Shown here piece after piece: positions 1 to 24,342 of a DNA stretch of 64,000 nt (positions are counted from its first letter, which is position 1; each line of letters opens with the position of its first letter). Under the pieces are notes generated by a model, which did not search any database, was not told the origin of the DNA, and was given only the letters and a program-made list of their open reading frames with translations. The translations under genes and the position numbers were made by a program. This stretch comes from Chlamydiales bacterium. GTDB taxonomy: Bacteria; Chlamydiota; Chlamydiia; Chlamydiales; JAAKFR01. The stretch spans positions 6,081-70,080 of the forward strand of contig JAJACG010000009.1 in the NCBI GenBank assembly GCA_022601635.1, given 5' to 3'.

Positions 1-882
1 CAACTGTTTGCGCATGAACTCTCAATTTGCGCGATCTTCCAAAATGAAGCGCCTTTTTTGAGTGAATGGATTGACTACCATCGAGCAGTTGGGGTTGAAC
101 ACTTTTACCTCTACAATGATAGAAGCTCTGACGCTTTCTATACTCAGCTAAAACCCTATATAGAAGCGGATATTGTCGAGCTTTTTGATTGCGCCGCATC
201 AGGCCGCCACTTCTACAACCAAAGACGAGCTTACTGCCGCGGCCTCAAACAGGGAAAGGAGGACAAATGGATCGCCTTCATCGATATCGATGAATTTTTG
301 CTCCCAAAACAGCATGATTCACTACCGCAGATGTTGAAACAGTATGAGCACTGCTGGGGCGTCTCGATTCGCTGGCAAAAGTTTGGTACAAGCTATATTT
401 GGGAGCTGCCCAAGGACAAATTGATGACGCAGGTGCTCATTTGGAAGGCTGAAGCCGATTACGAAGATAACTTCATCCGCAAAAGTATTGTCCAACCCAA
501 AAAATTGCCCGCCGAGTTTTTTGACGAGGAGTATGTGCGCGAAAATACGATCGACCTTGTCCACTTTTGCCAGTGGGAAGAGTACCAGCCAGCCAAGATG
601 CGTAACCTCGGTCCACTTGCCCTCCCCTCTCCTCATGCCGCGCTAGAACTCGAGCAGGCGCAGATCAACCACTACAGGTGTCGCAACGAAAAATATTACC
701 GCGAACGCAAAACAGCACGAAAAGCGCGCCTACATGCAGAAGATTTTGGCACTCCACCCACCTGGAGTGACAGCCGTGTTGAAAAATACCTCCCCCTCTA
801 TAACCAGCAGATCGATATGGAAATCTATCGGTTCATTCCAAAACTACTCGCACTCAGAGAAAAACAGCCCTCTGGATCATAA
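1..882 (+). CDS. Glycosyltransferase family 92 / GT2-like protein, 5'-truncated by the window edge
   Basis: Frame is open from base 1 (QLFAHELSICAIFQNEAPFLSEWIDYH...). LSICAIF.NE, EWIDYH...VEHFYLYND and WIAFIDIDEF (DxD) motifs are typical of GT92/DUF23. Confidence 0.75.
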   Translation, partial: QLFAHELSICAIFQNEAPFLSEWIDYHRAVGVEHFYLYNDRSSDAFYTQLKPYIEADIVELFDCAASGRHFYNQRRAYCRGLKQGKEDKWIAFIDIDEFLLPKQHDSLPQMLKQYEHCWGVSIRWQKFGTSYIWELPKDKLMTQVLIWKAEADYEDNFIRKSIVQPKKLPAEFFDEEYVRENTIDLVHFCQWEEYQPAKMRNLGPLALPSPHAALELEQAQINHYRCRNEKYYRERKTARKARLHAEDFGTPPTWSDSRVEKYLPLYNQQIDMEIYRFIPKLLALREKQPSGS

Positions 883-2162
883 TCTTGGCACAGTTTTTCA
901 AATGCATCCCATTTAGGGAAGACACGCTGCAGCTGCTTTTTTGTGAAAAAATGCGCTTTACCGAAGTGAGGTCGGATTGAGTATTTATGAAGATAGTTCT
1001 CTAGCTCTTTGAACTCTACAGCATCTTCGTCCCACTGGAAAGAGCGTTCAAAATCGTGAAAGCAGATTGAAAAGGCGTCACGTTCATAGGCAGGGCTAAG
1101 CCAAACTGAGTCTGCCTTTACAGGACGCATCTCCAACACCATCCTATCTTTAGCAAGCGGCAGATTCGGTCTGCTCGCAAAGTAGTCTCTCATAGCAGCC
1201 AAGAAGGCGGCAAAATCCTCCTGGCAAATGGCGTAGTCACTTTGCAAAATAGCCCTTCCTGAGGCGTGCATCTCCCTCGCTTTTTTTGCCACTCGCTCAG
1301 AAGACCAGCGCAAAATCGAGATGATCTCCCAACTCCTTCCGATGCGCTGAATATGATCGGGAAAATTCTCTATCGAGTGCAGATGGGGATACTCCCCCAC
1401 CATCTCAAAGTGGCCTAGCTTGAAGGGGTAATCCACTCGATGGCCTGTCACTACTTTTATTTTGTCATGCGCTACATTCCAAAACATCTGCAACTTTTCG
1501 CAGCTAAGTAGTTCATCCATGTGAGTGATCACCTCCTCAATAGGCAGCAGCCTAATCACCTCCGCCATCATAAAAAGAGGGATGCATCTCACTGTTACCT
1601 TGGTGATCACACCACACAGCCCAAGGCTAGTCACAACGCCATGAAAAGCCTCATCCTCTTCTGATAGCTGGTGCAGCTCTCCCTTACCATCAACAAATTC
1701 AATAGCGCACACCTGCGAAGCGAGTGATCCCATGTGCGGCACCTGCCCACGCGTTCCAGTCGCAATCGCCCCAACAAAGTTCTGCTCACAGATCGATCCC
1801 ACAGTGGCAAGTGTCAGCTCACACTTCTGCAGCTCTTCACAGAGCTGCCGCACGGAGACTCCAGCTTCAAAGCTGCAGCGATTCCCCTTAATACTCAAAA
1901 TGCGATCCATCTTCTCAAGTGAGATGTAGACACCCTCACTCTTGCAGATGGGATTCAATGAATGAGTCGCTCCCAAAACGCGCACCCGTTCATGTTCTTG
2001 GATTACCTGTGCGACCTCTTCAGCTGTCTGCGGGAGATAAACCTGCATCACTTCATCAAAGAGGATACCTCCAGCTGTAAAATCTACAGGTCGCTCTTGC
2101 ATCAAAACCGATGCATACAAGTGACTGCTAACCAACAAAAAAAGTTGAATAATTCTTGACAT
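825..2162 (-). CDS. FAD-linked oxidase, sugar-lactone/alditol oxidase family (FAD_binding_4 + ALO), possible signal peptide
   Basis: RVLGATHSLN flavin-attachment His motif, GAIATGTRG, SLGLCGVITKVT, C-terminal RPHFGK; hydrophobic N-terminus. Confidence 0.75.
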   Translation of the reverse strand: MSRIIQLFLLVSSHLYASVLMQERPVDFTAGGILFDEVMQVYLPQTAEEVAQVIQEHERVRVLGATHSLNPICKSEGVYISLEKMDRILSIKGNRCSFEAGVSVRQLCEELQKCELTLATVGSICEQNFVGAIATGTRGQVPHMGSLASQVCAIEFVDGKGELHQLSEEDEAFHGVVTSLGLCGVITKVTVRCIPLFMMAEVIRLLPIEEVITHMDELLSCEKLQMFWNVAHDKIKVVTGHRVDYPFKLGHFEMVGEYPHLHSIENFPDHIQRIGRSWEIISILRWSSERVAKKAREMHASGRAILQSDYAICQEDFAAFLAAMRDYFASRPNLPLAKDRMVLEMRPVKADSVWLSPAYERDAFSICFHDFERSFQWDEDAVEFKELENYLHKYSIRPHFGKAHFFTKKQLQRVFPKWDAFEKLCQDYDPEGCFSLSASSFGMNR

Positions 2163-2195
2163 AACTCTTACAATTCTCTAACATCATCGCAATAT

Positions 2196-3083
2196 ATGAC
2201 AACCTATTTCGTAAATGGAGAGTTTTGTGAAGAGCCAAGAGTGAGCGCTCTTGACCTTGGAATTTTGCGTAGCTTCGGCGTCTTTGACTACATTCAAAGC
2301 TATGGAGGTCTGCTTTTCCATCCTCAAGATCATCTTGAACGGCTTGCCTGGTCAGCTAAGCAGATTGGTTTACAGATGCCCTACTCACGAAAAGCGCTTT
2401 TAGAGATCACTCAGGAGATCGTTGAACGCAATGAGAAGAGGGACGCCGGTATTCGCCTCGTCGTTACAGGTGGGCTTTCAAGCCATGACCATCTGCTTCC
2501 AACTGGACGCGCCTCATTGATGGTCTATTTTCATCCCAATGACCCACAGCCAGATGATGCCTACAGTGATGGGCTACGAGTTGTGACCAATCGTCATCAG
2601 CGCTTTTTGCCGACTGTCAAGACCACCAACTACCTGCCTGCTATTTTTGGCATGAGGAGTGCCAAGGAGCGCGGTTTTGATGATGCGATCTATCTCAACT
2701 CTGATGATGAGCTTTTGGAGTGCACAACGAGCAACGCCTTTTTCTTTAAAGATGGCCACTGGATCACCTCAAAAGAGGTAGTGCATGGTGTGACGCGTAA
2801 AATCTTCCTCTCACTTTTGGAGGAGCCTGTTGAGTTCCGCTCATTGAAGCTTAGTGAGTGGCCCGAGTGTGAAGAGGCCTTTTTGACTTCAAGCGTGAAG
2901 GATGCTGTTCCACTTGTACAGATTGATGATCAATCTATTGGGCAGCCAGGTGCACGCACGGCAGATCTGACTGAAAAATTTCGCAGCTATTTAGAGAGGT
3001 ATTTTGAGCATGCAGACCAAAATCGATTTGAACGACATCTTCTCCATCGATCAGGAGGGAGATTACACACTACTACGCCATAA
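2196..3083 (+). CDS. PLP-dependent aminotransferase class IV (branched-chain/D-amino-acid/ADC lyase fold)
   Basis: DLGILRSFGVFD, HLERL, KTTNY (PLP lysine), ECTTSNAFF, GVTR, EAFLTSS motifs. Confidence 0.85.
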   Translation: MTTYFVNGEFCEEPRVSALDLGILRSFGVFDYIQSYGGLLFHPQDHLERLAWSAKQIGLQMPYSRKALLEITQEIVERNEKRDAGIRLVVTGGLSSHDHLLPTGRASLMVYFHPNDPQPDDAYSDGLRVVTNRHQRFLPTVKTTNYLPAIFGMRSAKERGFDDAIYLNSDDELLECTTSNAFFFKDGHWITSKEVVHGVTRKIFLSLLEEPVEFRSLKLSEWPECEEAFLTSSVKDAVPLVQIDDQSIGQPGARTADLTEKFRSYLERYFEHADQNRFERHLLHRSGGRLHTTTP

Positions 3084-4194
3084 AAAGCCGGCACAAAAAC
3101 TTCTAGTCTATGACCCTGGTCTTTATCATACAGCTATTTGCGAAAGTCATCTCTGTCACATCGATACCTTTGATGGAAAGCTCTACTACAGAGGTGAGGC
3201 TGTTGAGACCAAGATTGAGCAGGATTATTTGGACGTCGCTTATGAGCTAATCTTTGGTGAAGTAGATGAGAAAAAAGAGCGCTTTTTAGCTGCTGCAAAG
3301 TTTGAGCTTCTTGATGAACAGAGAGCGCTTTTGGATGTCATTCCGAGGTCGACCCATCCAATGGATGTCCTTGCCATGGCGGTGACCAATTTGGGCGGTT
3401 TGGAGCACAAATATCTCGCTGATCCAGCAGATCTCGCCGAAAAAGCGGGCTTTTTGATTTCCCAGGTGGCCGTTACTGTTGCCTATAGATATGCGGGAGA
3501 ATATTGGGAAGTGGACAGCTCTTTGCCCTATGCGGAGCAGATCTTGCGCCACATGCATCGCGATAAAAAGCGTGTTGAGGAACTCGGGCGCATTTTAAAC
3601 ACCATCATGATTCTGCACGCTGAGCATGGACAAAACTGCTCAGCTGTCACCGTGCGCTGCGTGGCCAGTGCGCGAGGCAGTCTCTACACTGGTGTTGCCT
3701 CAGGTATGGCCTCCTTTAATGGAGTGATTCATGGTGGCGCTAGTCAATTTGTCTCTGCGATGTATGAGGAGCTGATTGAGAGCGGTCTTGATGTGGACAG
3801 CTATGTGAATCGGAAGTTAGAAAAGAGAGAGCTTTTGATGGGTTTTGGGCAGCGTACCTACAACCGTATTGAGGGCTGCTGGGATCCACGCGTCGAGACA
3901 ATGCACCGCATTTTGACAGATGACTCCTTCGATTTCCCTGAGGTGAAGGCGTATCGCGATGCTGCGATTGCTCTGATCGAGCGTGTCAAAGAGGAGCCCT
4001 TCTTCAAAGAGCGCAATTTGACACCCAACCCCGATCTTTTCAACTGCATCTTCTACAAGCTCTTTGAAGCACCACGTCAGATGAACACGACGATGCTCGC
4101 ATTGGGCCGCATTGCAGGCTGGATTGCCAACTTTGTGGAGCACACCGAGAAGCGCTACCCTCTCACAAGACCGGGAGACATCTCTGTCGAGTAG
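3010..4194 (+). CDS. Citrate synthase family protein (variant active site)
   Basis: GKLYYRG, HAEHGQNCS, HGGA, DPR, PNPDLF and RIAGW match the Si-citrate synthase fold; canonical GFGHR reads GFGQR. Start is TTG 3004 or ATG 3010. Confidence 0.8.
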   Translation: MQTKIDLNDIFSIDQEGDYTLLRHKKPAQKLLVYDPGLYHTAICESHLCHIDTFDGKLYYRGEAVETKIEQDYLDVAYELIFGEVDEKKERFLAAAKFELLDEQRALLDVIPRSTHPMDVLAMAVTNLGGLEHKYLADPADLAEKAGFLISQVAVTVAYRYAGEYWEVDSSLPYAEQILRHMHRDKKRVEELGRILNTIMILHAEHGQNCSAVTVRCVASARGSLYTGVASGMASFNGVIHGGASQFVSAMYEELIESGLDVDSYVNRKLEKRELLMGFGQRTYNRIEGCWDPRVETMHRILTDDSFDFPEVKAYRDAAIALIERVKEEPFFKERNLTPNPDLFNCIFYKLFEAPRQMNTTMLALGRIAGWIANFVEHTEKRYPLTRPGDISVE

Positions 4195-5264
4195 AGTCGA
4201 TCTAAAAATGCAACCGTATTGCGATGGCTGCTTAAAGGTGAGCGGCCATCGCCCCCTCTTAAAAAGTCCTCAAACTGCCATCTTCTCGCCGCCTTATTCA
4301 AGCTAGGCGAACCTCCAAAACTCTTCTCAATGACTCTTCCCCTCTCCAGGATCGTGACAGAAAATTTCTCCTCAAAGCGTCCATCAATTTTGTGGCAGGG
4401 CAAGCTCTCAATCTGCAGCGAGCTCTCCATCCCACAGTGAATCGTCACCCGTTCCTGCCGCACCTTGCCAGGCAGCTTATAGCCTCTTTTGCCTTCACGC
4501 AGTGAGAGCGAGGTGCCGCGCAGCTGCACAGAAAAAGAGGCCTCTTTACTCTTGCCCATCAAAAGACAATCTGTCTCTCGCATCAGCTCTAAATCTGGAT
4601 GCGGATTTTCCCCCAATATGCGCGTCTGCTCAGCAGGATTGATCGTCATCATCTGCACATGCACAGATGAGAGATCGATCCGCTGCGCCAATAGATCGAT
4701 GTAGTGATAGCCCGAGTGAAGCAAGATGCCGTAACCCATATGAAAGGGATGCGTCTTCAAATCGAGATATTCGTCAGGTAGATTCCAGACACCTCCACCA
4801 AAGTTGATATCAACAGAAGTGACCCGTTTATCTTGCAAGTAGCTGCGCACAAAATCATAGCCTTGATGCGCACGCCTTTCACAGGAAAGCACACACTCCG
4901 CTCCCTCCATCTTCTCAAAATCTGCCAAAAGATGTGAGCTAGCACTCACCGGCTTGTCCATAAATATAGGGATTCCCCTCTGCTTTGCCCACAAAACGTA
5001 GGGTAGATGGACAGAAGGGTCGGTAGAAATAAGACAGCAGTCAGCATCTACATCGACAATGGTTTCAATCTCCTCTGGCAGAAGATTGTAACGCATTGAC
5101 TCTGGCAAAAAACGCATAGGGACAGAGTCCCCAAAAAAAGCGCGGATCTCCTTTTCTCGGCTTTTGAGATCTACAATGAGACGGATGTCAAGCCCCTGGC
5201 GGAAGTAACGCGCCCTAAAATGGTCGCTACAGCCGAGGACAACAATAGAGTTTCTCTGCTTCAA
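4155..5264 (-). CDS. Gfo/Idh/MocA-family oxidoreductase
   Basis: ISTDPSVH...IFMDKPV (EKP-like) and GILLHSGYHYIDL motifs; overlaps pepM as last gene of the operon. Confidence 0.65.
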   Translation of the reverse strand: MKQRNSIVVLGCSDHFRARYFRQGLDIRLIVDLKSREKEIRAFFGDSVPMRFLPESMRYNLLPEEIETIVDVDADCCLISTDPSVHLPYVLWAKQRGIPIFMDKPVSASSHLLADFEKMEGAECVLSCERRAHQGYDFVRSYLQDKRVTSVDINFGGGVWNLPDEYLDLKTHPFHMGYGILLHSGYHYIDLLAQRIDLSSVHVQMMTINPAEQTRILGENPHPDLELMRETDCLLMGKSKEASFSVQLRGTSLSLREGKRGYKLPGKVRQERVTIHCGMESSLQIESLPCHKIDGRFEEKFSVTILERGRVIEKSFGGSPSLNKAARRWQFEDFLRGGDGRSPLSSHRNTVAFLDRLYSTEMSPGLVRG

Positions 5265-6060
5265 CTAGTTCCTTTTCATCGACAAGAGAAAATATCTCAT
5301 CAACCGAGGCAATGTCAAGCACGCCTCCATCTAATAGAGCTTGGCAGGTTTTTTCCATCGCGCGAATCGACGCGCGCAAAAGCTGATTGGCCCAGATTAC
5401 AACAGAGATTCCCATCTGCTCAAAATGGACACGCGGAGTGTCCATGTAGGTTGTCGGCACCACGATCAGCGGGCAGCTCCCCTCCCACCTCGAACAGAAA
5501 GCCTCTATTTCCACCGCTGTTTTTCTCTTTGAATGAACCAAGATCGCATCAGCACCAGCTGCCTCATAGGCATAAGCCCTATTGACTGCTTCTTCAAGTC
5601 CCAGGCCTGCAATAAAGGCCTCTGTTCTCGCAACAACAACAAGGCTGCTTACATCTTTTGCTGCTTTGATCTTTCCCGCAAACTCCTCAATAGGAGCAAG
5701 TTTTTGTCCATAGGGCAGAAAGGAGTTGGTTTTGGGAAAGATTTTGTCTTCCATACAGAGTCCAGCAATACCGTAGCGCTCCAACTTCTTTGCCAAAAGG
5801 CGTACCTGATTGAAGTTGCCGTAGCCTGTATCACCATCCATCAAGATGGGGAGATCTGTTGCTGCTGCCATATATTCCAGCTGATCACACACCTGCGACC
5901 AACTCAGTTCATTGCAATCTCGATGGCCACAAGAGGCTGAGAGAGTGAGCCCAGAGGCCCACAAAAGCTTAAAGCCAGCACGCTCAGCAATCTTGGCCGA
6001 GATGCCGTTATGCACCTCCATCGCGTAGCAAAGCTCATCACTCTCTAGAATCTCGCGCAT
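5227..6060 (-). CDS. pepM: Phosphoenolpyruvate mutase
   Basis: PepM signature EDKx5NS (EDKIFPKTNS), plus HNGISA, WASG, DGDTGYGN, VARTEA, GADAILVHS. Confidence 0.9.
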   Translation of the reverse strand: MREILESDELCYAMEVHNGISAKIAERAGFKLLWASGLTLSASCGHRDCNELSWSQVCDQLEYMAAATDLPILMDGDTGYGNFNQVRLLAKKLERYGIAGLCMEDKIFPKTNSFLPYGQKLAPIEEFAGKIKAAKDVSSLVVVARTEAFIAGLGLEEAVNRAYAYEAAGADAILVHSKRKTAVEIEAFCSRWEGSCPLIVVPTTYMDTPRVHFEQMGISVVIWANQLLRASIRAMEKTCQALLDGGVLDIASVDEIFSLVDEKELVEAEKLYCCPRL

Positions 6061-8159
6061 ATTTCCTCAAAGCTAGAGCTAAAAATGTCTGCACCAAGCG
6101 GCAAGAGCTTTCTTCTCACTACCTCTTTGGCCCTGGCATCAATGTGGTGCGAATCCGATTGCAAGACGCGATTGACAATGGAGAGCTCCATCCACTTTCT
6201 AAGATGGGGATGACCTGTCAAAAAGCTACGCCCATCAGGCTCTTCTGCCATACGAGGAGGAGGCGGAGTCTCTACCAACTGCTTCACACGCTCATACGCC
6301 TTGCTAAGATCAAGTGGATTGGCAAGAGAGATCTTATGCTCAAAGCGGTATTTTGCTGCTAGCTCTGCCAACCCTACAACAGCTTCTGGAGCGGCTGGGA
6401 AATTTTCTGGCCAATATTGCGCGGCCACCTGCTCAACTTCCTGTTGCATTTCGCTATCCAGCTCATGCAGATCTCTTTGGATCTCTGTATTACAGGCATC
6501 ATAGTAGTATTGAGGAACCTTAGCGCGGTTGGCTAACCGATCAGCCATATTCTCACAGTAGGCTCTAAAGCCGCCACCCAACCAGATATAGGCGCGCAAC
6601 AGTGCGTAGGCATCAAAGTAGCGAGTAAAACTCTCGCGATTCAGTTCCAACTCATTGGCCGCTGTTGAAAAGGCTTCCAGTGCCTCCCTATGCTTCTGAT
6701 TAAAGAGCTGCGCTCGCGAGCGATCAAAGTCAGAAAAGAGTCCCACATATTCAGAAAAAGGACGCAACTCAATGCAGAAAATATCATCCACCACGCGATA
6801 CGCCTGATCAAAACCTCTTCCCAAAATCTCCCCTATATAGTGCATGCGCTTCGCATTGATCTCCTGCTGAAAACCAACAATGGGATAGCTCGGAGTCTGC
6901 CGCCACGTCTTGTCATCCGCATCAAAGACAATCCCCTGAGATCTCCATGCAGGCAGAATCTGCTCCATATTGGGGAATGGACGAACTCTCGTTGGAGCAA
7001 AAAGCTCCTCCGGATGCGCATCGACAAGCTCTGGCCTGCCTTCGAAAACAGCGCGTTTTAAACCATCCACTGTCACCTCTTCGCCAGATGCCGCCCGAAG
7101 CTGCTCAAAATGCGCTGTGTCAATCCCAACAACACAAGGAATTCCCAACTCTCTAGAAAGGAGCATCGGGTGAGAAGAGGGCGCCCCCTCCTGTGTGATC
7201 AATGCACTCGCCTGACGCAGGTGCTGTGTCCAGCTATTAGTTGTCACATGTGCCAACACAATCTCTCCCGGCTGTACAGTCGCCGCCTCCTCTCTAGAAG
7301 CGATATAGCGCATCGCTCCAGATGCAACACCTGGAACTGAGAAGAGCCCACTCGCAATCGGCTCCCCTTCCGCGACGGTCTTCATGCCCACAATCTCTCT
7401 TTGAACAAGGACCCTTGCCTGCAAAATACGCAGTGTACTCTCTTGATCAATGGCAAACTCAATATCTACAGGAACTCGATAGAGCGCTTCGATCCTCTTT
7501 GCCAAGCACGCAATTTTTAAAGCCACGCCATCAAGGAAAAGTGCAGATTCACCATGGATCACCCTTTCAATAACTGTGTCATTGTGGACCACCCAACTAT
7601 CTGTAGGCACTTTGCCATCAACCACCTGCTCACCCATTCCCTCAGCACAAGCAATCTCCACAGCTGGCAGCCCATTGGAAAGAACCTGTGTGGTAATCAC
7701 GCCCGCCACCTTCGCAGCCACCGCCTCCTGAATAATCACAGCCATCTTTGGAATCGCATCGTGGCTCTCAAGTTCACCTTGCGCCCTATCAGTAAAAGCT
7801 GAGGCCCAAACAGATTTTACAGCGTCCACTACATTTTCAACATTGATATCAATTTTAGAGTCAAAGCGACCCGCATAGGAGGCCTTGGCGCTATCCTCCA
7901 CATCACAAGAGCTGCGCACAGCAAAAGAGCTGCCTCCTATTCGTCTCACAATCTCGTGGATCTTCGCAATTGTCGCCGCAGCAACCGGATTCTCCTGAAT
8001 GTAGGCGCGCTTTTCCGCAAGTGACAAACTTTGATCCATCCCATAGGTGTGCACCTCAAAGTGTGAGGCATCCAAGACATCCCAAGGAGGAATACTCGCT
8101 CCTTGAACCACTGCTATTTTTCGTAAATTCTCTGCTTTTCCACCAATACTCATACTCAA
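6045..8159 (-). CDS. PEP-synthase/PPDK-like dikinase: ATP-grasp domain, phospho-His swivel domain, unassigned C-terminal domain
   Basis: IGGKAENL, FAVRSS..ED...SYAG, GMGEQVVDG, DIEFA...ILQAR; swivel motif EGAPSSHPMLLSRELGIPCVVG. Confidence 0.75.
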   Translation of the reverse strand: MSMSIGGKAENLRKIAVVQGASIPPWDVLDASHFEVHTYGMDQSLSLAEKRAYIQENPVAAATIAKIHEIVRRIGGSSFAVRSSCDVEDSAKASYAGRFDSKIDINVENVVDAVKSVWASAFTDRAQGELESHDAIPKMAVIIQEAVAAKVAGVITTQVLSNGLPAVEIACAEGMGEQVVDGKVPTDSWVVHNDTVIERVIHGESALFLDGVALKIACLAKRIEALYRVPVDIEFAIDQESTLRILQARVLVQREIVGMKTVAEGEPIASGLFSVPGVASGAMRYIASREEAATVQPGEIVLAHVTTNSWTQHLRQASALITQEGAPSSHPMLLSRELGIPCVVGIDTAHFEQLRAASGEEVTVDGLKRAVFEGRPELVDAHPEELFAPTRVRPFPNMEQILPAWRSQGIVFDADDKTWRQTPSYPIVGFQQEINAKRMHYIGEILGRGFDQAYRVVDDIFCIELRPFSEYVGLFSDFDRSRAQLFNQKHREALEAFSTAANELELNRESFTRYFDAYALLRAYIWLGGGFRAYCENMADRLANRAKVPQYYYDACNTEIQRDLHELDSEMQQEVEQVAAQYWPENFPAAPEAVVGLAELAAKYRFEHKISLANPLDLSKAYERVKQLVETPPPPRMAEEPDGRSFLTGHPHLRKWMELSIVNRVLQSDSHHIDARAKEVVRRKLLPLGADIFSSSFEEICARF

Positions 8160-8923
8160 TACTTCTGTGATATCATGCTACTCGATTCATAACGGCCAAG
8201 CCCTTGATAGAAAAAGGCTATGGCAACCCCCAAAAAGATCAACACACCCAAATAGGAGATCCCCAAATAGTGCCACGCGTGCGTTCTCAAAAACTCAACA
8301 GGGAAAAAACTCAAATAGGCGGTCGGAAGCAGCGTCAAAGTCAACACCTTGAAAAAACCGCGATAGGCAGAGTTTGGATGCGTCGCCACAATATTGGCAT
8401 TGGAGTAGAGCTCACGCACAAAACTTTGCGAATTTTGTAAGAAAAATGCGATCGAACTGAGATAGAGATAGAGCGAAAAAATGCCAATGCTAACAAGTGG
8501 CAGCAGAAGCAAAATCCAGATCGGTGAACTCAAATAGCCGCTGATCAAGATCAAGATCATGCCATAGATCGCTTCAGCTGCAGCTGTCACATCCCCCTTT
8601 GCCAAGATCACATTGAGCAGAACATTTCGAGGCTGCGTCATGTAGTTGTCTAGCTGATGCGTCTCAATTAAAAGCGGCAGATCACGCACACCGTAAAAGA
8701 AGGTCTCAACAATACCAATGCTCATCGAGACCATGCCATACATCGATAGCATCTCAGCAAAACCCCAGCCATTAACCGATATGTAGCGGTCAAAGAAAAA
8801 GGCCCAGGTCACGACGTAGAGCCCCTGCTTCACAAAGATGAGCAGCACCTTCACCCAAAAAGAGAGACGCATGGCAAGCGAAAGCTTGATCTGCGTCGCA
8901 AAGAGAGTGCGCCAAAAGTTCAT
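8156..8923 (-). CDS. ABC-2-type exporter permease (ABC2_membrane_6-like)
   Basis: Multiple TM segments, GWGFAEM, LDNYMTQPRN, GLGRYESS. Start moved to MNFWRT (ATGA overlap with the upstream permease at 8920-8923). Confidence 0.75.
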   Translation of the reverse strand: MNFWRTLFATQIKLSLAMRLSFWVKVLLIFVKQGLYVVTWAFFFDRYISVNGWGFAEMLSMYGMVSMSIGIVETFFYGVRDLPLLIETHQLDNYMTQPRNVLLNVILAKGDVTAAAEAIYGMILILISGYLSSPIWILLLLPLVSIGIFSLYLYLSSIAFFLQNSQSFVRELYSNANIVATHPNSAYRGFFKVLTLTLLPTAYLSFFPVEFLRTHAWHYLGISYLGVLIFLGVAIAFFYQGLGRYESSSMISQKY

Positions 8924-9648
8924 CCGCCCTCCATTACCAAACGTTTTCGATAGGCGGCAAACAGTAGGCGCCCCAAGATCCAGAAAATTGCCATCCAGAG
9001 TAGCCAAAAAAGTGGCGCTACTGCTGTCACCCTTGATCCCGAAAAGAGCGCAGCTGGCCAGTAGAGAACCCAGGGATAGGGAGTGAAAAAGGCGATCTTT
9101 TGCATCCAAGCGGGATAGTCACTAAGCGGTACAATCAAACCACCAAAACAGAAGGTCGCCGTTAAATTGAAATAGAGCAGCGTCTTGATCTCACGCATCC
9201 AAAAAGAGAGCAGCCCAATCACCAAACTCATCTGCGTGTAAAGCACAAGTCCCAAGAATCCAACAAAAAAGGAGACAAAGTTGGGAGTGCCTCGCAACCA
9301 AAAAGAGAAGAGAGTGGCCGCTGCAAAGAGAATAATGTAGCGAAAAGAGGCGTTGCCCAGCGCTTCAATGGATCGAAAAGTGCAGTAATCGACGGGGCGG
9401 AGCAAAAAGTAGGCAGTCTGATTAGTGCGGATATCACTCAAGATAGTGAGAACAAGCGGCGCTGCCGAGATGATGACAGCCTCGGTCATCGCCAAGTAGC
9501 AGATGCGTGAGCTTGCTGCCTCAACGGCAACAAAGATCTGCTTGAAGAGAAGGACAACAATCACAAAGAGCAGCAGGCGGCCGCAAAGCTGCCCCTTCTC
9601 ACTAAGTTGCTGCAAAAAAGCAGCTCGTGCCGCCATCCAATATTTCAT
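8920..9648 (-). CDS. ABC-2-type exporter permease
   Basis: Hydrophobic; DIRTNQTAYFLLRPVDY and FGGLIVPL..YP motifs; ATGA-coupled to the ATPase. Confidence 0.75.
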   Translation of the reverse strand: MKYWMAARAAFLQQLSEKGQLCGRLLLFVIVVLLFKQIFVAVEAASSRICYLAMTEAVIISAAPLVLTILSDIRTNQTAYFLLRPVDYCTFRSIEALGNASFRYIILFAAATLFSFWLRGTPNFVSFFVGFLGLVLYTQMSLVIGLLSFWMREIKTLLYFNLTATFCFGGLIVPLSDYPAWMQKIAFFTPYPWVLYWPAALFSGSRVTAVAPLFWLLWMAIFWILGRLLFAAYRKRLVMEGG

Positions 9649-10565
9649 CGATAAAAGCCCTCGATCACACTCTCAAGAGAGGGCCCCTCTATCGTCAAAT
9701 CACAAATAGAAAAGCGTTTCATCAACTCCTCCACCACAACATTGACGCTGCTTCTGTCCAAATCGATTTCACAGACAAGGCGGTGATTCTCACTCTCGAT
9801 CATCTTCACACCCTCCAGCTCAATGCTGCCTTTTGCTTCTTGCAACACAGCAGTCACAATCCGAGTGCGTAGGTAGTTCTTCTTCATGCTGTCAACTGAG
9901 TCATCCACCACTAAGCTACCCTTGTTGATCAAGATAACGCGATCACAGAGCCGCTCAACATCGTCTGTGTCATGAGAGGTGAGTAGAAGCGTGCAGCCAA
10001 GCTCCTTGCACATGGTGCGCAAAAGGTCGCGAATCATTGCCTTGGCCGTGATATCTAAGCCAATCGTCGGCTCATCCAAAAAAACCATCTGAGGCGTATG
10101 TAAAAAGCTGGCCAAAAGTTCACAGCGCATTCTCTCTCCCAAAGAGAGCTGACGCACAGGTTTTGCTATCAGATGGCTCACACCAAAAAGCTCCACAAGC
10201 TCATCTTTGCGCTTCAAATAGGCCGCTTTTTCCAGCCCATAGATCGCAGCCAGTAGATCAAAGGACTCCTGAACTGGCAGATGAAACCAGAGTTTGGAGC
10301 AGTGACCAAAGAGCACACTCATCTGACTAGCTAGCTTTTTACGCTGCTTGTGTGGATCGAATCCTAGAATAGAGATGTCGCCCGTAGTGGGCTGCATCAC
10401 ACCTGTTAACATCTTGATAGTAGTTGATTTGCCGGCACCATTAGGACCAATAAAGGCAACACACTCCCCCTTTGGAATAGAGAAGGAAAGAGAGTCAACA
10501 GCGACAAAGTCGCCTTTTTTAGAACGGAATTTTTTTTGTAGGTTGGAAACTTTTACAGCACTCAT
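9645..10565 (-). CDS. ABC exporter ATP-binding subunit (DrrA-like)
   Basis: Walker A GPNGAGKST, signature LSLGERMR, Walker B VFLDEPT, LTSH. Confidence 0.92.
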   Translation of the reverse strand: MSAVKVSNLQKKFRSKKGDFVAVDSLSFSIPKGECVAFIGPNGAGKSTTIKMLTGVMQPTTGDISILGFDPHKQRKKLASQMSVLFGHCSKLWFHLPVQESFDLLAAIYGLEKAAYLKRKDELVELFGVSHLIAKPVRQLSLGERMRCELLASFLHTPQMVFLDEPTIGLDITAKAMIRDLLRTMCKELGCTLLLTSHDTDDVERLCDRVILINKGSLVVDDSVDSMKKNYLRTRIVTAVLQEAKGSIELEGVKMIESENHRLVCEIDLDRSSVNVVVEELMKRFSICDLTIEGPSLESVIEGFYR

Positions 10566-10590: not shown

Positions 10591-12087
10591 TCAAAGCTGC
10601 AACTTATTAAATGCTGTTTGTAGATTTTGATCGCATTGCAATCCTGGGAAATCGTTCGGGTGGCCTAAAGGGTCTTTTGCAAGTAGCTCTTTTAGATCGC
10701 TTTCGAACGTTGCCTTTTTGATTGGACGTCCCCACCCTCGCTTTGTAGCAAGCTCACAGTTATACTCCTCCCAAAAGGAGGTACCTGGAACAAAAAAGAG
10801 CTGAGTACCAGTGGCAATTCCCTCACTTGTAGAACCACCTCCTGGCTTCGTGATATAGACATCAGCTCGTTTAATGTAAGCTCCCATACGCGCAGCACCA
10901 TCGACGTAGCCAATAGGATGGAAATTGTCCCCAAGAGCTCGAATATCGTCTTTCAACTTATCATACATCTTGGCACAAAGAGCAAATACATGAACCGTCT
11001 CATTAAATTGAATGCCTTTGATTTTTTCACAAATCGTCTTGATTCTCGGACTTCCAGCTCCTCCCATACAGATTGTGATCACCTTGCCATCTACCTGAGT
11101 GATTTGTCCCATCTCATTGTTGATCTCATGTTGATCTCCTTGAAATGGAGGAGGCAGAAGAGCTCCAATCTCTAAGATATTGGTGACACCTCTTTTTTCA
11201 AGTCGTGCACGCTCCTCCTCGTCACTAGGGAGCATCATCCCAACCGAAAGATGGGATCCAGCTTGACTGACACCGGTCAAAAAGTGCTCTGAATAGTAGT
11301 CGGTACCCAAGACCCAAAATGGAATATTCAGTTTGGCCGTCTCATCATGGATATAGGAGTTTCCAATCGGTTGAACGCTGATCACCAGCTGCGGCTTGTA
11401 GTGATAGAGAGTGCGCACCATCACCTCACCAACAGAGTGAAAGGCGCCGACCGCATCACCTATTCCCTGTCCCTTCACCAAGACTTTCTGTAACCCTATC
11501 CAATCTCTTTTCTGACAGCGATTATAGACACCTGTGGTCATAGCATCACTATCAACAGAAATGAGCGTAACTTGAGCCCTAGCATCCAAAGCGCGTGCAA
11601 CCGCTTTTGCAGCCGACTTATGCCCTCCTCCCCCATTCGAAAAAAAGACTACAACACGCGGCTTAGCTGTCTCCCAGCGAGTGCCCGGCATTGAGGGAGA
11701 GTCCCCCACCTTGAAAGCTGGAGTCTCATTTTCTGTTTGTTCAGCAATCCACAACCTCTTCTGCTTATCAAACTCTCGCTTCCGCAGCTTCTCCACTCCA
11801 AAGCGAATAGCAAGTCCCGTGACTAGTGTGACAGCAGCAAAAGAACCAACCACATAGAGCTGGTATTCTGTCAGTCCCCTGGCCCATACCACTGCCCTAG
11901 ATGTCATAGGAATCACTCTGCCAATCAAAAGGCCACCCGCAACAAGCTCCGCTGTAAGAGCAACTGTACCAATAACGATCAAAACTGTTGATGTCGTCTT
12001 CGCAGCACTACGAGCCATTCCATCCTTAGGAGCTCCCCAAGGACTGGCTGTCATACTTAATGTGACTTCATTTGCTAAACCACCCAT
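10591..12087 (-). CDS. MGDG-synthase/GT28-like glycosyltransferase with N-terminal bilobed hydrophobic domain
   Basis: SNGGGGHKSAA, MGGAG and ITKPGGGSTSE motifs; two N-terminal hydrophobic stretches. Confidence 0.7.
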   Translation of the reverse strand: MGGLANEVTLSMTASPWGAPKDGMARSAAKTTSTVLIVIGTVALTAELVAGGLLIGRVIPMTSRAVVWARGLTEYQLYVVGSFAAVTLVTGLAIRFGVEKLRKREFDKQKRLWIAEQTENETPAFKVGDSPSMPGTRWETAKPRVVVFFSNGGGGHKSAAKAVARALDARAQVTLISVDSDAMTTGVYNRCQKRDWIGLQKVLVKGQGIGDAVGAFHSVGEVMVRTLYHYKPQLVISVQPIGNSYIHDETAKLNIPFWVLGTDYYSEHFLTGVSQAGSHLSVGMMLPSDEEERARLEKRGVTNILEIGALLPPPFQGDQHEINNEMGQITQVDGKVITICMGGAGSPRIKTICEKIKGIQFNETVHVFALCAKMYDKLKDDIRALGDNFHPIGYVDGAARMGAYIKRADVYITKPGGGSTSEGIATGTQLFFVPGTSFWEEYNCELATKRGWGRPIKKATFESDLKELLAKDPLGHPNDFPGLQCDQNLQTAFNKLQL

Positions 12088-12132: not shown

Positions 12133-12585
12133 TTATGATTTTACAAAAAGACCAATGAGCTCACACTTTGCGAGGATATGGCCCTCCATTTGAGCCTCCA
12201 CCTCTTTTTTGGTGGCACCTTTTGGTAAGTCAATTTTTGAATCCAGCGCATAGAGTTTGAAAAAGTAGCGATGCTCTTTGTCAGGGGGGCAGGGGCCGAT
12301 GTAGCCATCTTCGCCACCACTATTGCGTCCGAGGGTGCCAAAGGGGGGGGCATCTTCAGCGATGGAGGTTGTTTTGGGGTCGATATTGAAGACGACCCAG
12401 TGGTCATACATGCAGTCGGCGCGCACCTCAGGCGGAACATCGGGGTCATCCATGATCAGAGCTAGGCTGATTGCCCCTTCAGGGACAGCGGAGATTTCCA
12501 GCGGTGGATTGATATCACTCCCTTGGCAGCTGTAGAGTTTGGGGATGGATCCTTGATGTTCGAAAACAAAGCTTTTGAGTTGCAT
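12133..12585 (-). CDS. YbhB/YbcL family (PEBP) protein
   Basis: LALIMDDPD, HWVVFNI, YIGPCPP...HRYFFKLYALD. Confidence 0.9.
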   Translation of the reverse strand: MQLKSFVFEHQGSIPKLYSCQGSDINPPLEISAVPEGAISLALIMDDPDVPPEVRADCMYDHWVVFNIDPKTTSIAEDAPPFGTLGRNSGGEDGYIGPCPPDKEHRYFFKLYALDSKIDLPKGATKKEVEAQMEGHILAKCELIGLFVKS

Positions 12586-15973: not shown

Positions 15974-17056
15974 ATGGAAGATTTCTACCACCGCCTAAGC
16001 TATAGCTTTGGCAATGAAGATTGGGAAACAGAGAAACGAGCGCTTAAAATTCAGAAGGGTGATCACGTATTATGTGTGACAGCGAGTGGTGATCGTCCTT
16101 TGAATTTGTTGACCCAGGAGTGTGGTCAGATTACCTCTGTGGACACCAATGGGATGCAAAATGCGCTGCTTGACTTGAAGCGAGTGGCTTTAGAGAGGCT
16201 TCCCTATGATGAATATTTACGTTTTTTGGGGATGAAAGATGCCTCTGATCGTATGCAGACCTACTCCGCATTTTCTGCGGATTTGGATCCTAAGTCTCAC
16301 GCTTTATGGATGCGTCATAAGCGCGCGATCAAGCGGGGGGTGATTTTTCAAGGTGCGATAGAAAGGCGCACGAAGATGGTGACATTTTTGGTCAATTTGA
16401 CGAGGAGGCGCAAAGTGAAGCGCCTCTTTTCTTTTGACAATGTTCAGGAGCAGCGCGACTTTGTGGACAAGAGTTTTGAGACTAAGTCGTGGCGGAATTT
16501 GATTGATCTTCTTCTAAAACCGCGTCTGACCCGGATATTTTTGAGTGATCCTGGGCTCTACGAATATGTGGATTCCAAGATCAATGCGGGGACCTACATT
16601 CATGACCGTCTTCACTCTGCATTGGGCCAATTTCCAGCAAAGCAGTCCCCTCTTTTATCGATGATTTTGCGAGGCTATGTTGACCCAGACCATCTACCTC
16701 CCTACCTGACCCAGGCGGGTGTAGAGCAGATCAGACCGCGCCTGGATCGCTTGAAGATTGAGACTGCAGATCTGATCTCTTTCTTAGAGAACTCTCCAGA
16801 AAACAGTTATGACTGCTTCTCGCTTTCTGATGTGGCTTCATACGTGCCATACGAGGCATTTGAGCGGATGGTAAAGGCGGTTCAGCGCTGTGCCAAGCCG
16901 GGAGCGCGTTTTTCTATTCGCCAATTCATGACGAATTATGAGATGCCGAGCAGTGTGGCGAACTTTTTTGAGCGAGATAGGGAGCTTGAGGAAAAGCTAT
17001 CGAAAGAGGATCGCTGTTTTGTCTACCGCTTCATGACAGGCACAATCAAGAAGTAG
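15974..17056 (+). CDS. DUF3419/BtaA-like SAM-dependent transferase
   Basis: YSFGNEDW..E, VLCVTASGD, VDTN..QNALL.LK, FSLSDVASY, EDRCFVY. Confidence 0.75.
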   Translation: MEDFYHRLSYSFGNEDWETEKRALKIQKGDHVLCVTASGDRPLNLLTQECGQITSVDTNGMQNALLDLKRVALERLPYDEYLRFLGMKDASDRMQTYSAFSADLDPKSHALWMRHKRAIKRGVIFQGAIERRTKMVTFLVNLTRRRKVKRLFSFDNVQEQRDFVDKSFETKSWRNLIDLLLKPRLTRIFLSDPGLYEYVDSKINAGTYIHDRLHSALGQFPAKQSPLLSMILRGYVDPDHLPPYLTQAGVEQIRPRLDRLKIETADLISFLENSPENSYDCFSLSDVASYVPYEAFERMVKAVQRCAKPGARFSIRQFMTNYEMPSSVANFFERDRELEEKLSKEDRCFVYRFMTGTIKK

Positions 17057-18421: not shown

Positions 18422-19411
18422 TCAACGTGTGAGTGCGGTCAGGATTTTTCTTTTCCCTGAGAAGGGAGCTCTTCCATGCATGGCGATGACATTGTCTAGG
18501 ATGACCATATCATTTTTCTGCCATGGGTAGGAGATGGTGCAGTCATCGAGTGTCCGCATCACTTTATAGAGGTCGGTTCGTTTGATTGCGCTCTTGTCGC
18601 CATAGGTGATTTCATGCATCACGGTGTGCGGCCTAGCGTAGATCACTTTGGTGCCGATGTAGTTCCAAAATCCAACTAATTTGGGATTGTAGTCGTACAG
18701 GTGTGCTTGGTTAAACCAGATGAGTTCGCCTGTGCTCTCATGTTTCATGAGAGCGGGTCTTTTTTGAACGATCTGCACCCACTGCTTGCGCCACTGGTAT
18801 TCAAAGTCTTGTTCTTGACACATCTTTTCAACAGCGCTTTTATCTTCAGTTTCGAATACTTCTGTCCATCGTTTGTGTGCTCGGGCAAATTTATTGATTA
18901 GATCGAGCAAAATATCATGCTTATAGTAGTTGGAAATGTAGCGCAGTCCTTTTTCTTCAAACTGTTTACGTATTGAGGGGTCCATTTTTTGAGCAATTTC
19001 TCTGGCGTCTCCTATGATCGTGGCGCCACCTGAGGCTGCTGCGGTATCGCAGTAGAAGTAGATATGTCTTGGGTAGTTTTTGATGAAGCTCATTTCGTTG
19101 TGGAGTGGAATTTTGAGTTTAGGTGGAGCTTCGGTTGAGGTGTAGACTTTGCCTTTGACTTTATCGCGTGGTGAGTCACCGCCGATGTAGTTGAGCTGTT
19201 TTCCGAGGTTGAGTGTTTCGATGACTTTATTGAATCCAGTGGCGCCCTCGATTGGAAAACCTCGCAATAGGATGCCACCGAACTTGGTGATTTTGCTACT
19301 TAGGCTCTCTCGATTGTCTTCGATATATGTGAGTAGCTCATCGAAGGTCATTTTTTTTGTGGGTTGGATGACAAGTGGGAGCTGCTGTTTATTGAGGAAG
19401 GATTCTTTCAT
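18422..19411 (-). CDS. TauD/TfdA-family Fe(II)/2-oxoglutarate dioxygenase
   Basis: GGILLRGF, PLHNEMSF (HxE), WFNQAH, DNVIAMHGRAPFSGKR. Confidence 0.85.
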   Translation of the reverse strand: MKESFLNKQQLPLVIQPTKKMTFDELLTYIEDNRESLSSKITKFGGILLRGFPIEGATGFNKVIETLNLGKQLNYIGGDSPRDKVKGKVYTSTEAPPKLKIPLHNEMSFIKNYPRHIYFYCDTAAASGGATIIGDAREIAQKMDPSIRKQFEEKGLRYISNYYKHDILLDLINKFARAHKRWTEVFETEDKSAVEKMCQEQDFEYQWRKQWVQIVQKRPALMKHESTGELIWFNQAHLYDYNPKLVGFWNYIGTKVIYARPHTVMHEITYGDKSAIKRTDLYKVMRTLDDCTISYPWQKNDMVILDNVIAMHGRAPFSGKRKILTALTR

Positions 19412-23700: not shown

Positions 23701-24342
23701 TCAATTCACTCCATTGTTCAAATAGTCAAACATAGCATCTTCAAGCGCTGAATGAAGTGTTACAGGGCTCTCGAGCTCGCATTGCGAGCGGTGGCACTGT
23801 GTGCCACAAGGCGGCGTAGCCTCCTTACGAGAGCCCCGTAGAATCTCTACTGCTTCCTCATACGTCTCAAAATGTACATTTTCAGCTGGTTGCACTTCTT
23901 TAGATAGATCCAACCTTGAATACCGAATCCTTCCATGTGAGAGTGAGACCCCTGTAATGTAATCTTGATTCTTATCACAGGGATCAGGTCCGAATATCGA
24001 TAGGCGATATCTATCGACTAGAGCATGCGGATCTGTAAAGCACTCTAGAAATGCTTGATTTGATCGTATGATATCAGTCAAGCTTTCGACTAGCTTGACT
24101 ATCTTTGCTCTTGCGGTGTCGACGGTTAGTACATCATAGGTATCAAATGAGACTGTTACCAGGTATATTTCTTCTTCCGAAGCACCACCTCCTGTGCCAA
24201 CCGCAAACAGATCATTGTCTCGCTCTTTTTTTACAAGGAGATCAACTATCTGATCTAATCGAGTATAGGGATTATCAGGCTTTTCTTTTTGCTGACACGA
24301 TGCCATACAAAAAAGTATCAGTATTCCGATAATGAATCTCAT
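23701..24342 (-). CDS. Lipoprotein, putative cognate immunity protein (copy 1)
   Basis: Lipobox MASC; ATGA overlap with the Rhs stop at 24339-24342; paralog of 22983..23534. Confidence 0.7.
   Translation of the reverse strand: MRFIIGILILFCMASCQQKEKPDNPYTRLDQIVDLLVKKERDNDLFAVGTGGGASEEEIYLVTVSFDTYDVLTVDTARAKIVKLVESLTDIIRSNQAFLECFTDPHALVDRYRLSIFGPDPCDKNQDYITGVSLSHGRIRYSRLDLSKEVQPAENVHFETYEEAVEILRGSRKEATPPCGTQCHRSQCELESPVTLHSALEDAMFDYLNNGVN
23761..23840. repeat. Four-way-junction (cloverleaf) palindromic element, copy 2
   Basis: TACAGGGCTCTCG A [GCTCGC-ATT-GCGAGC] G [GTGGCAC-TGT-GTGCCAC] [AAGGCGGC-GTA-GCCTCCTT] A CGAGAGCCCCGTA. Confidence 0.88.

Follow-up and report, generated by a model that had tools for sequence, protein, structure and literature searches.

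The 64,000-nucleotide stretch of DNA analyzed here (the window) comes from a member of the Chlamydiales (assembly GCA_022601635.1, contig JAJACG010000009.1, positions 6,081 to 70,080, or G000:C33:6081-70080), whose genome, G000, comprises 1.64 Mb on 33 contigs and is 97.74% complete. The left end of the window is occupied by an island of 12,132 bp and 11 genes, running from a GT92-like gene (start at G000:C33:6036, approximately 45 nucleotides left of the window) to a GT28-like gene (end at window position 12087). The island encodes a phosphoenolpyruvate (PEP) phosphomutase (PepM), a paralog of citrate synthase (CS-like protein), and an ATP-binding cassette (ABC) transporter, and it very probably makes and exports a compound with a carbon–phosphorus (C–P) bond. 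Every gene named in an initial annotation made from the sequence was found where that annotation had placed it; the unit is larger than the proposed 825-10565, covering about 12.1 kb and the following 11 genes.

1-882 (start about 45 nucleotides before the window), forward strand: GT92/GT2_4-like glycosyltransferase (PF01697, E 4e-19; PF13704), the leftmost island gene.
825-2162, reverse strand: FAD-linked oxidase of the VAO/ALO type, an accessory tailoring gene (PF04030 and PF01565; TIGR01679, 187 bits, cut-off of 292 not reached).
2196-3083, forward strand: class IV (fold type IV) aminotransferase, AT4 (PF01063, E 3.5e-46, 158 bits).
3004-4194, forward strand: citrate-synthase-family paralog, Q-variant (CS-like; PF00285, E 4e-69, 233.9 bits, profile positions 1-356 of 357).
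4155-5264, reverse strand: divergent Gfo/Idh/MocA-fold oxidoreductase (Gfo-like), probably NAD-dependent (predicted fold; no Pfam match).
5227-6060, reverse strand: PEP phosphomutase PepM (TIGR02320, 323.7 bits, cut-off 319.55; contains EDKIFPKTNS).
6045-8159, reverse strand: dikinase-like phosphotransferase, Dik (PF01326, PPDK_N; PF00391, mobile His domain).
8156-8923, reverse strand: ABC-2 permease 2 (PF06182, ABC2_membrane_6, E 1.5e-18; likely start ATG at 8923).
8920-9648, reverse strand: ABC-2 permease 1 (open reading frame with hydrophobic sequence; no Pfam match).
9645-10565, reverse strand: ABC transporter ATPase, DrrA-like (PF00005 and PF13732; TIGR01188 drrA, 221.6 bits, cut-off of 312 not reached).
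10591-12087, reverse strand: membrane-anchored GT28-like (MurG/MGDG-synthase-like) glycosyltransferase (PF04101, E 1.5e-4, 22.3 bits, cut-off 22).

The genes are tightly packed. The AT4 and CS-like genes on the forward strand face the run of reverse-strand genes, in which Dik and PepM overlap by 16 nucleotides and PepM and the Gfo-like gene by 38. ATGA junctions had been proposed at three places in this run; those at 9648-9645 and 8923-8920 are present, and the junction at 8159-8156 reads TTGA, with an ATG two codons later.

PepM is well supported by its sequence as a genuine PEP mutase, converting PEP to phosphonopyruvate (PnPy). Its score against the PEP mutase equivalog passes the cut-off by a narrow margin, and all sister families stay below theirs: phosphonopyruvate hydrolase (200.8 against 374.4 bits), methylisocitrate lyase (135 against 354), CPEP mutase (90 against 420), and isocitrate lyase, likewise far under. 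By this profile comparison, the protein belongs with the mutases and not with the lyases. The mussel PEP mutase 1m1b matches with 298 bits (E 6e-88) over residues 12-292 of 295, with identity at RD.NE, D.DTGYG, EDK.FPKTNS, AR.EAF (ARTEAF/ARVEAF), and HSK; these blocks cover the EDK(X)5NS motif that defines PEP mutases and their metal- and substrate-binding residues. In a PepM tree of 32 rows, in which G379 forms a long branch (its fused N-terminal 145 residues were trimmed before alignment), the seven chlamydial PepMs of the cluster type group with one metagenome sequence (L067) at a support of 92/92 (not starred); three further metagenome PepMs from Q-variant loci (L057, L058, and L063) are not resolved, and no donor can be named. 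The closest non-chlamydial PepMs are from Verrucomicrobiales (55-58% identity) and from Polyangiaceae/Labilithrix (51-54%), and homologs of the CS-like, Gfo-like, Dik, and AT4 proteins were found in 0 of 17 of their loci at E<=1e-6. Matches at 57-58% identity include a transcriptome record from the eukaryote Trimastix and an UNVERIFIED_CONTAM record from an isopod assembly (P0121 and P0123).

The known routes that draw PnPy onward are missing from this genome. PnPy decarboxylase (Ppd, TIGR03297), which accompanies about 83% of phosphonate neighborhoods in a 2022 inventory (PMC8942020), has no candidate in G000, and the control profile matched 14 of 14 genomes; what the initial annotation had reported for the window thus extends to the whole genome. 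No match to PF00682, the family of the HMGL-like FrbC, was found in G000 at E<=0.001 (control, 14 of 14 genomes), and no PhnW exceeded its cut-off (best score, 19.2 bits). Among the island gene families there is no PntC-type nucleotidyltransferase; the initial annotation had seen no phosphonate nucleotidyltransferase in the window. The cluster holds no homologs of aconitase or isocitrate dehydrogenase, and the Pfam matches of the island give no hint of an HppE-type epoxidase, for which no dedicated search was made. Ppd is also below its cut-off in all 10 of the other PepM-positive chlamydial genomes (the sole match, 25.9 bits, is in G064); "missing" Ppd means here that the family cut-off was not reached in the sampled genomes.

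The most distinctive gene of the island encodes the CS-like protein. It matches PF00285 over nearly the whole profile and lies far below the cut-offs of all NCBIfam citrate-synthase equivalogs (best, NF004126, 211.5 against 505 bits). Its motif GFGQRTYN aligns with GFGHRVYK of the solved citrate synthases 7e8n and 6zu0, so that Gln occupies the position of a His, with four inserted residues after it; this His belongs to the catalytic triad (His/His/Asp) of citrate synthase. The protein retains the His of HGGA, the Asp of PN.D, and the arginine positions of DPR, GR..GW, and RP. Canonical citrate synthases (7e8n, 6zu0, and 4g6b) share the fold and are about 30% identical from end to end, and differ in having the GFGHRVY His and a C-terminal RPRQ where the CS-like protein has Gln with its insertion and RPCD/RPGD. 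Because a second, separate citrate synthase that retains the His is encoded in G000, the paralog is not the housekeeping enzyme. All seven chlamydial cluster copies have the Gln, the 4-residue insertion, and RPCD-type ends.

A search of a 5.8-billion-protein collection shows that the paralog belongs to a discrete subfamily, with 61 proteins at >=276 bits and the next at 154 bits. Gln is present in 52 of the 54 best-scoring homologs; the 14 that come next keep the His and lack the insertion (Chitinophaga proteins, ordinary citrate synthases among them). A metagenome scan seeded with the paralog yielded 17 loci. Wherever sequence extends beyond the CS-like gene (L056-L066 and L068), a Gfo-like gene follows or abuts it. 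PepM is present in 11 of 11 Q-variant loci with enough flanking sequence (the window, L009, L036, L038, L039, L043, L046, L057, L058, L063, and L067); five more Q-variant contigs (L052-L056) end short of any possible PepM. His-variant loci with long flanks (L059, L060, L064, L065, and L068) have no PepM at E<=1e-5 and encode instead an ALS-like thiamine diphosphate enzyme, an NTP_transf_2 protein, and a major facilitator superfamily (MFS) exporter. At least 21 proteins of the subfamily were matched to one of the 120 best PepM matches by equal size of the longest contig, an indirect sign of co-location. The invariant partners of PepM in these loci are the CS paralog and the adjacent Gfo-like gene. 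Two metagenome loci (L057 and L058) have an AMP-binding enzyme where the chlamydiae have Dik, and L058 has an ELFV amino-acid dehydrogenase in place of the aminotransferase; these replacements in non-chlamydial-looking versions support conserved roles, namely ATP-dependent activation and amination.

The PepM-less His-variant loci (L059/L060 and L064/L065/L068) look like an uncharacterized family of natural-product clusters in their own right; L059 adds AMP-binding, class I/II aminotransferase, acyltransferase_3, and TauD genes beside a phage-type integrase.

The distribution of the cluster was followed in 401 Chlamydiota genomes, 400 of which were scored for PepM (one was not scorable), and by searching the PepM neighborhoods of other chlamydial genomes with the window proteins (tblastn). 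PepM exceeds the cut-off in 11 of the 400 scored genomes, all of them in the order of the window's genome, and in neither of two genomes of the same genus, G001 and G002. The core of PepM, CS-like, Gfo-like, aminating enzyme, Dik-like, and ABC-2 exporter genes (eight genes) recurs, rearranged, in six other chlamydial genomes of four other families and in metagenome contigs, so the neighbors do co-occur with PepM, as the initial annotation had left to be seen. Four genomes (G035, G064, G111, and G320) carry AT4, CS-like, Gfo-like, PepM, Dik, the ABC ATPase, and both permeases; in G124, Dik, PepM, Gfo-like, CS-like, and AT4 lie on a 7.4-kb contig that ends before the exporter; and G169 has all core genes except AT4, in place of which a class I/II aminotransferase stands between the ABC and CS-like genes. 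Gene order and strand vary between these genomes, and the G035 cluster lies between housekeeping genes, with alaS at one end and pyruvate dehydrogenase at the other. The CS paralog (E<=1e-80) occurs in 7 of 401 genomes, which are precisely those that carry the cluster and are all PepM-positive; the Gfo-like gene is found in the same seven, in G108, and as a weak match in G334. The island seems to have been passed from one chlamydial family to another.

The accessory genes are more variable. The FAD oxidase had been placed merely beyond the locus; it proves to lie mid-cluster, together with a GT92-like gene (52-54% identity), in G064 and G111, and it follows the CS-like gene in these two genomes and in L053 and L054. 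It was not seen in the G035, G320, and G169 loci. The GT92-like gene is missing from the same three loci, from the G124 contig, and from the syntenic site of G001. The GT28-like gene has no homolog at E<=1e-20 in G001-G004 and none in the other cluster loci; it is part of the segment that G001 lacks, and only in G000 is it an island member.

The four other PepM-positive genomes (G013, G136, G364, and G379) carry other kinds of locus. In one kind (L008, G013:C113; L042, G136:C4; and L045, G364:C73), PepM is accompanied by an Ldh_2 dehydrogenase and a SAM_HAT_N protein (SAM hydroxide adenosyltransferase-like); G013 adds PhyH, HAD, and HIT genes and G364 a B12-binding radical-SAM enzyme, and no Ppd over the cut-off was found in G013, G136, or G364. 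In the other kind (L040, G379:C1:10103-13904), PhyH and radical-SAM genes come before the gene for a 441-aa cytidylyltransferase–PepM fusion, and downstream of the fusion lies an ABC-2 exporter 42-53% identical to that of the window.

The Gfo-like protein matches no Pfam family at E<=0.001 (PF01408 included), with only a faint match to TIGR04380 iolG (18.5 bits). According to its AF2 model (pLDDT 85.7), it has the two-domain Gfo/Idh/MocA fold, with a Rossmann domain and an alpha/beta C-terminal domain. Foldseek places the model against solved structures at E values from 6.6e-15 to 1e-12 and TM scores of 0.6-0.7 (8tdi, 8qc6, 1ofg, 7xre, and 3q2k; glucuronide-3-dehydrogenase, GFOR, DgpA, and WlbA are among them), and 27 of 30 matches in an atlas search with the protein are GFO_IDH_MocA. 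The original assignment to this family is thus upheld by predicted structure, despite the lack of a Pfam match. Across 14 sequences, DKP and HSGYHYIDLL do not vary; they presumably correspond to the EKP and D/H motifs of the family. A predicted complex of the CS-like and Gfo-like proteins scored 0.00 against a mark of 0.32, without controls, and was used neither for nor against their association.

The best solved relatives of AT4 are D-amino-acid transaminases (7p8o, 7p7x, and 8raf, E ~4e-36), with branched-chain enzymes close behind (E 6e-31), and all NCBIfam equivalogs are under their cut-offs. The Schiff-base Lys is kept, with VKTTNY aligning to VKTINY of 7p8o and 7p7x. In the Haliscomenobacter enzyme (7P7X), K143 is the pyridoxal phosphate lysine, and the enzyme is described as strictly D-specific, with a preference for D-glutamate/2-oxoglutarate and pyruvate (PMC8401098).

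Export of the product by the ABC-2 system is plausible from the gene content. No Pfam match among the 11 island genes is to a substrate-binding-protein family, and transporters of the ABC-2 type generally work as exporters. In three kinds of chlamydial PepM locus, those of G013 and G379 included, PepM has a DrrA-like ABC-2 system with it, and orthologs of permease 1 lie beside the ATPase in eight chlamydial PepM loci; homolog alignments of permease 2 begin at query residues 52-63. Of the exported small molecule first suggested for this locus, the export part therefore stands as plausible.

Dik consists of an ATP-grasp part (PPDK_N), a swivelling His domain, and, at its C terminus, a rarely found helical domain; a Pfam scan finds no PEP-utilizers_C TIM barrel. 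From its scores of 162-176 bits against PEP-synthase equivalogs with cut-offs of 598-740, Dik is not a PEP synthase; it matches the PigC, RedH, and rifampin phosphotransferase (RPH) families at E values of 1e-42 to 4e-31, all far under cut-off. The C-terminal 328 residues are modelled as a helical domain (pLDDT 87) that superposes on residues ~316-715 of RPH-Lm (VIA) with Z 9.1-11.2, a root-mean-square deviation of 4.7-5.4 Å over 249-274 residues, and 7-9% identity (next row, Z 6.4), values of a kind that for helical domains is not conclusive below Z of about 13; the Foldseek match to RPH is likewise weak (E 0.2, probability 0.72-0.77). RPH-Lm and PigC/RedH share the ATP-grasp and mobile His domains with Dik. 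The domain order of RPH is ATP-grasp, substrate domain, His, whereas that of Dik is ATP-grasp, His, substrate domain. A profile of the C-terminal domain finds 102 representatives in 1.84 billion proteins, most of the same architecture, and a word-based search finds 4 proteins. The same three-domain module also occurs within proteins of 2,300-3,200 aa (P0247, P0248, and P0251), fused to DUF218, PHP, and ADP-forming acyl-CoA-synthetase domains (ATP-grasp_5 and Succ_CoA_lig).

PnPy is known to be taken directly by FrbC (HMGL-like), PalB (a class I/II aminotransferase), and VlpB (a 2-hydroxyacid dehydrogenase), as listed in the 2022 inventory (PMC8942020). In the FR-900098 and Pseudomonas fosfomycin pathways, FrbC and Psf2 trap PnPy without Ppd by an aldol-type condensation with acetyl-CoA (PMC8942020), the same logic that we propose here. 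FrbC and Psf2 are homocitrate-synthase homologs of PF00682, whereas the candidate of the island has the PF00285 fold with His replaced by Gln, and the claim is one of functional likeness and not of family membership. PalB, the phosphonoalamide aminotransferases, and VlpB, which also consume PnPy without Ppd according to the same inventory (PMC8942020), belong to PF00155 and PF02826, as opposed to PF01063 and the Gfo/Idh/MocA fold here.

These observations suggest, with a probability that we put at roughly 0.5, that this is a Ppd-independent phosphonate biosynthesis and export island in which the Q-variant CS paralog pulls the PepM equilibrium. PnPy is the phosphonate analog of oxaloacetate, and the paralog would condense it with acetyl-CoA or another acyl-CoA to a phosphonomethylmalate-type product, following the reaction of FrbC/Psf2 with a non-homologous fold. 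The Gfo-like enzyme, of the NAD type, would carry out the next redox step on the product of the CS-like enzyme, and the class IV, D-amino-acid-transaminase-like enzyme would add an amino group; the carbonyl for amination might arise if the thioester were retained and reduced, or if a hydroxyacyl-CoA served as donor, which is speculation. Dik may transfer phosphate from ATP, by way of its swivelling His, to a small-molecule acceptor held in the RPH-like C-terminal domain, either to activate it for ligation or to phosphorylate it for self-protection. The DrrA-like ABC-2 system would export the product, and the FAD oxidase and glycosyltransferase-like genes may represent lineage-specific tailoring. 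It had been suggested that a neighbor of a family not usually tied to phosphonates supplies the pulling step; this is probably so, with the CS-like/Gfo-like pair as the best candidate by comparative genomics. More tentatively still, the Gln-variant CS and Gfo-like pair might form a new branch point of PnPy and lead, together with the D-type transaminase and the RPH-like enzyme, to an exported amino-phosphonate antimetabolite, for example a D-configured acidic amino-acid analog, directed into the host or against competitors.

Several points weigh against condensation by the CS paralog. We infer PnPy as its substrate from co-occurrence and from the oxaloacetate/PnPy analogy alone, and the counts among related genomes are not independent of kinship. 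The residue changed to Gln is the His that polarizes the carbonyl of oxaloacetate, and its loss could mean chemistry other than adaptation to PnPy. Two of the 54 best-scoring homologs (P0027 and P0044) have His yet carry an insertion of 3-4 residues (GFGHRIYNRI..CWDSR) and possibly stand midway between the His form and the Gln form. G108 has a lone Gfo-like homolog (L070, G108:C41:1222-2562; 36% identity by tblastn, E 7.5e-65), 1.2 kb from the start of its contig, with no CS-like or PepM gene beside it. The Gfo-like protein and Dik of the window are short (369 aa against 420-477 aa in orthologs, and 704 aa against 800-863 aa), with the conserved motifs kept in both. The product of a citrate synthase reaction is only a tertiary alcohol, which leaves the Gfo-like enzyme and the transaminase without an obvious substrate unless there is a further step. 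Aconitase, which is encoded in G000, was not found in two (G111 and G169, each ~96% complete) of the five other genomes with the cluster that were checked for it. A route like that of FR-900098, in which housekeeping aconitase and isocitrate dehydrogenase would lead to 2-oxo-4-phosphonobutyrate, had appeal because the closest characterized transaminase prefers 2-oxoglutarate/D-glutamate and G000 has aconitase; it was not adopted as a general explanation because of the two genomes in which aconitase was not found.

The pull on PepM could instead come from another of the neighbors. Transamination is unlikely, in our judgment: AT4 would turn PnPy into phosphonoalanine, possibly the D-isomer, in the manner suggested for PalB-type enzymes, and the CS-like and Gfo-like enzymes would act later or on a second substrate. 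Every complete cluster has an aminating enzyme (AT4 in six chlamydial genomes, five of the six other clusters having an ortholog of the window's; for G169, a class I/II enzyme; and for L058, an ELFV dehydrogenase), and AT4 is followed by the CS-like gene, adjacent or overlapping, in the window, in five chlamydial genomes (G035, G064, G111, G320, and G124), and in L052-L055. Pyruvate and 2-oxoglutarate are among the small 2-oxo acids accepted by the closest characterized relative of AT4 (PMC8401098), and formation of phosphonoalanine is the second most common predicted fate of PnPy in the inventory, at 9.2% of neighborhoods (PMC8942020). Yet the aminating enzyme swaps among three unrelated families while the Q-variant CS and Gfo-like genes stay constant, and two short contigs (L057, with CS, Gfo, AMP-binding, and PepM genes, and L063) show no aminotransferase; transamination would also leave the PepM-specific Gln signature unexplained and the CS paralog without a 2-oxo-acid substrate. 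Reduction, by which the Gfo-like enzyme would convert PnPy to phosphonolactate as VlpB does, with elaboration by the other enzymes, seems distinctly unlikely. The Gfo-like gene adjoins PepM in all seven chlamydial clusters and in L058, L063, and L067, its product is predicted to fold as an NAD(P)-dependent oxidoreductase, and reduction by an enzyme of another family seems to be the route where Ldh_2 lies beside PepM in G013, G136, and G364. The Gfo-like gene is equally tightly paired, however, with the His-variant CS in PepM-less loci (L059, L064, and L068), and because this pairing persists without PepM, the product of the CS-like enzyme is a more likely substrate for it than PnPy. Enzymes of the Gfo/Idh/MocA family, moreover, typically act on the hydroxyls of sugars and cyclitols and not on 2-oxo acids.

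The remaining explanations give the island another purpose. Decoration of the cell surface, with a phosphonate placed on a glycan or lipid by the two glycosyltransferase-like genes and flipped by the ABC-2 system, we consider very unlikely. ABC-2 systems do also export polysaccharides, the GT92-like and GT28-like genes lie within the island, the former being present in the G064 and G111 clusters as well, and most bacterial phosphonate capacity serves to decorate cell surfaces (PMC6697681). Against it stand the lack of a PntC-type nucleotidyltransferase among the island genes, the restriction of the GT28-like gene to G000, the absence of the GT92-like gene from three loci and the G124 contig, and a conserved core made up of small-molecule enzymes. 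The least probable account is catabolic: imported host phosphonate would be converted through PnPy to PEP by PepM, feeding an energy-parasitic cell, with the CS-like protein acting as a lyase. The equilibrium of PepM does lie strongly toward PEP, marine invertebrates are rich in phosphonates, and the stretch is present in three DNA runs of one study, all labelled sponge metagenome (no RNA run is among those listed as containing it); an aminotransferase beside an enzyme of the PepM superfamily is also the layout of the degradative PalB/PalA pair (PMC8942020). A DrrA-like ABC-2 transporter with no substrate-binding-protein family among the 11 island genes argues otherwise, as does the protein's passing score as PepM (323.7) and not as phosphonopyruvate hydrolase (200.8 against a cut-off of 374). 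We know of no natural catabolic use of PepM.

The initial annotation had considered such a locus unusual for an obligate intracellular lineage, a view that finds no support in that form: phosphonate clusters were reported in 2022 in chlamydial metagenome-assembled genomes associated with sponges, with a PepM tree that places the chlamydial sequences among known PepMs and leaves the donor unknown (PMC9666466), and PepM is present in the 11 scored genomes above. PepM in Chlamydiae is therefore not new, and the novelty lies in the logic of the pathway and not in the host lineage. The published clusters likewise contain PepM and occur in environmental Chlamydiae; the cluster was called fosfomycin-like (score 0.61, 50% PepM identity), by its authors' word unconfirmed, and the available part of that account makes no mention of Ppd, a CS-like/Gfo pair, or a dikinase-like gene (PMC9666466). 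In the open-access literature, supplements aside (Data S5/S10 of PMC9666466 and Figs S4-S6 of PMC8942020), we found no account of a PnPy enzyme of the PF00285 type, of the CS-like/Gfo pair, or of the Gln signature, and no report that chlamydial genomes with PepM generally lack Ppd, nor any description of the dikinase-like enzyme.

If condensation by the CS paralog is correct, a citrate-synthase-fold enzyme would form a new family beside the three known to take PnPy directly, and GFGQRTYN with an adjacent Gfo-like gene would serve as a marker for genome mining. The sampled PepM-positive chlamydial genomes, none with Ppd over the cut-off, appear to have at least three different solutions, and they point to an uncultured, obligately intracellular phylum as a source of unusual C–P chemistry. 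A product that mimicked a D-amino acid or an intermediate of the tricarboxylic acid cycle could bear on the dealings of these symbionts with hosts or rival bacteria.

The boundaries of the island are defined by comparison with G001. Upstream of the window, the three genes left of the island encode FtsK, a metallo-beta-lactamase-fold protein, and a SET-domain protein; in G001 the same trio is followed by a gap of ~470 bp and then by a homolog of the PEBP gene at window position 12133-12585, after which synteny resumes. Since the PEBP gene is the next one after the SET gene in G001, the whole segment from the GT92-like to the GT28-like gene is missing at the syntenic site there. Recent transfer was also sought in base composition and was not indicated: the GC content is 48.6% in the island and averages 47.1% over the genome (SD 1.25%, 12-kb windows), and because 7% of 12-kb windows equal or exceed the island, there is no compositional signal of transfer.

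The SET-domain gene that abuts the left edge of the island and is kept in G001 encodes a 202-aa protein (L047:5452-6060 of G000:C33; PF00856). To the right of the island, the window encodes a DUF3419 protein (15974-17056) and a TauD-family dioxygenase beside an MFS transporter (18422-19411 and 19459-20646); these three genes lie outside the island, because all are conserved and syntenic in G001. Farther along, on the reverse strand, is an open reading frame of 1,665 aa (24339-29336), of which the N-terminal part alone matches, at 32% identity, the edge of a G001 stretch.

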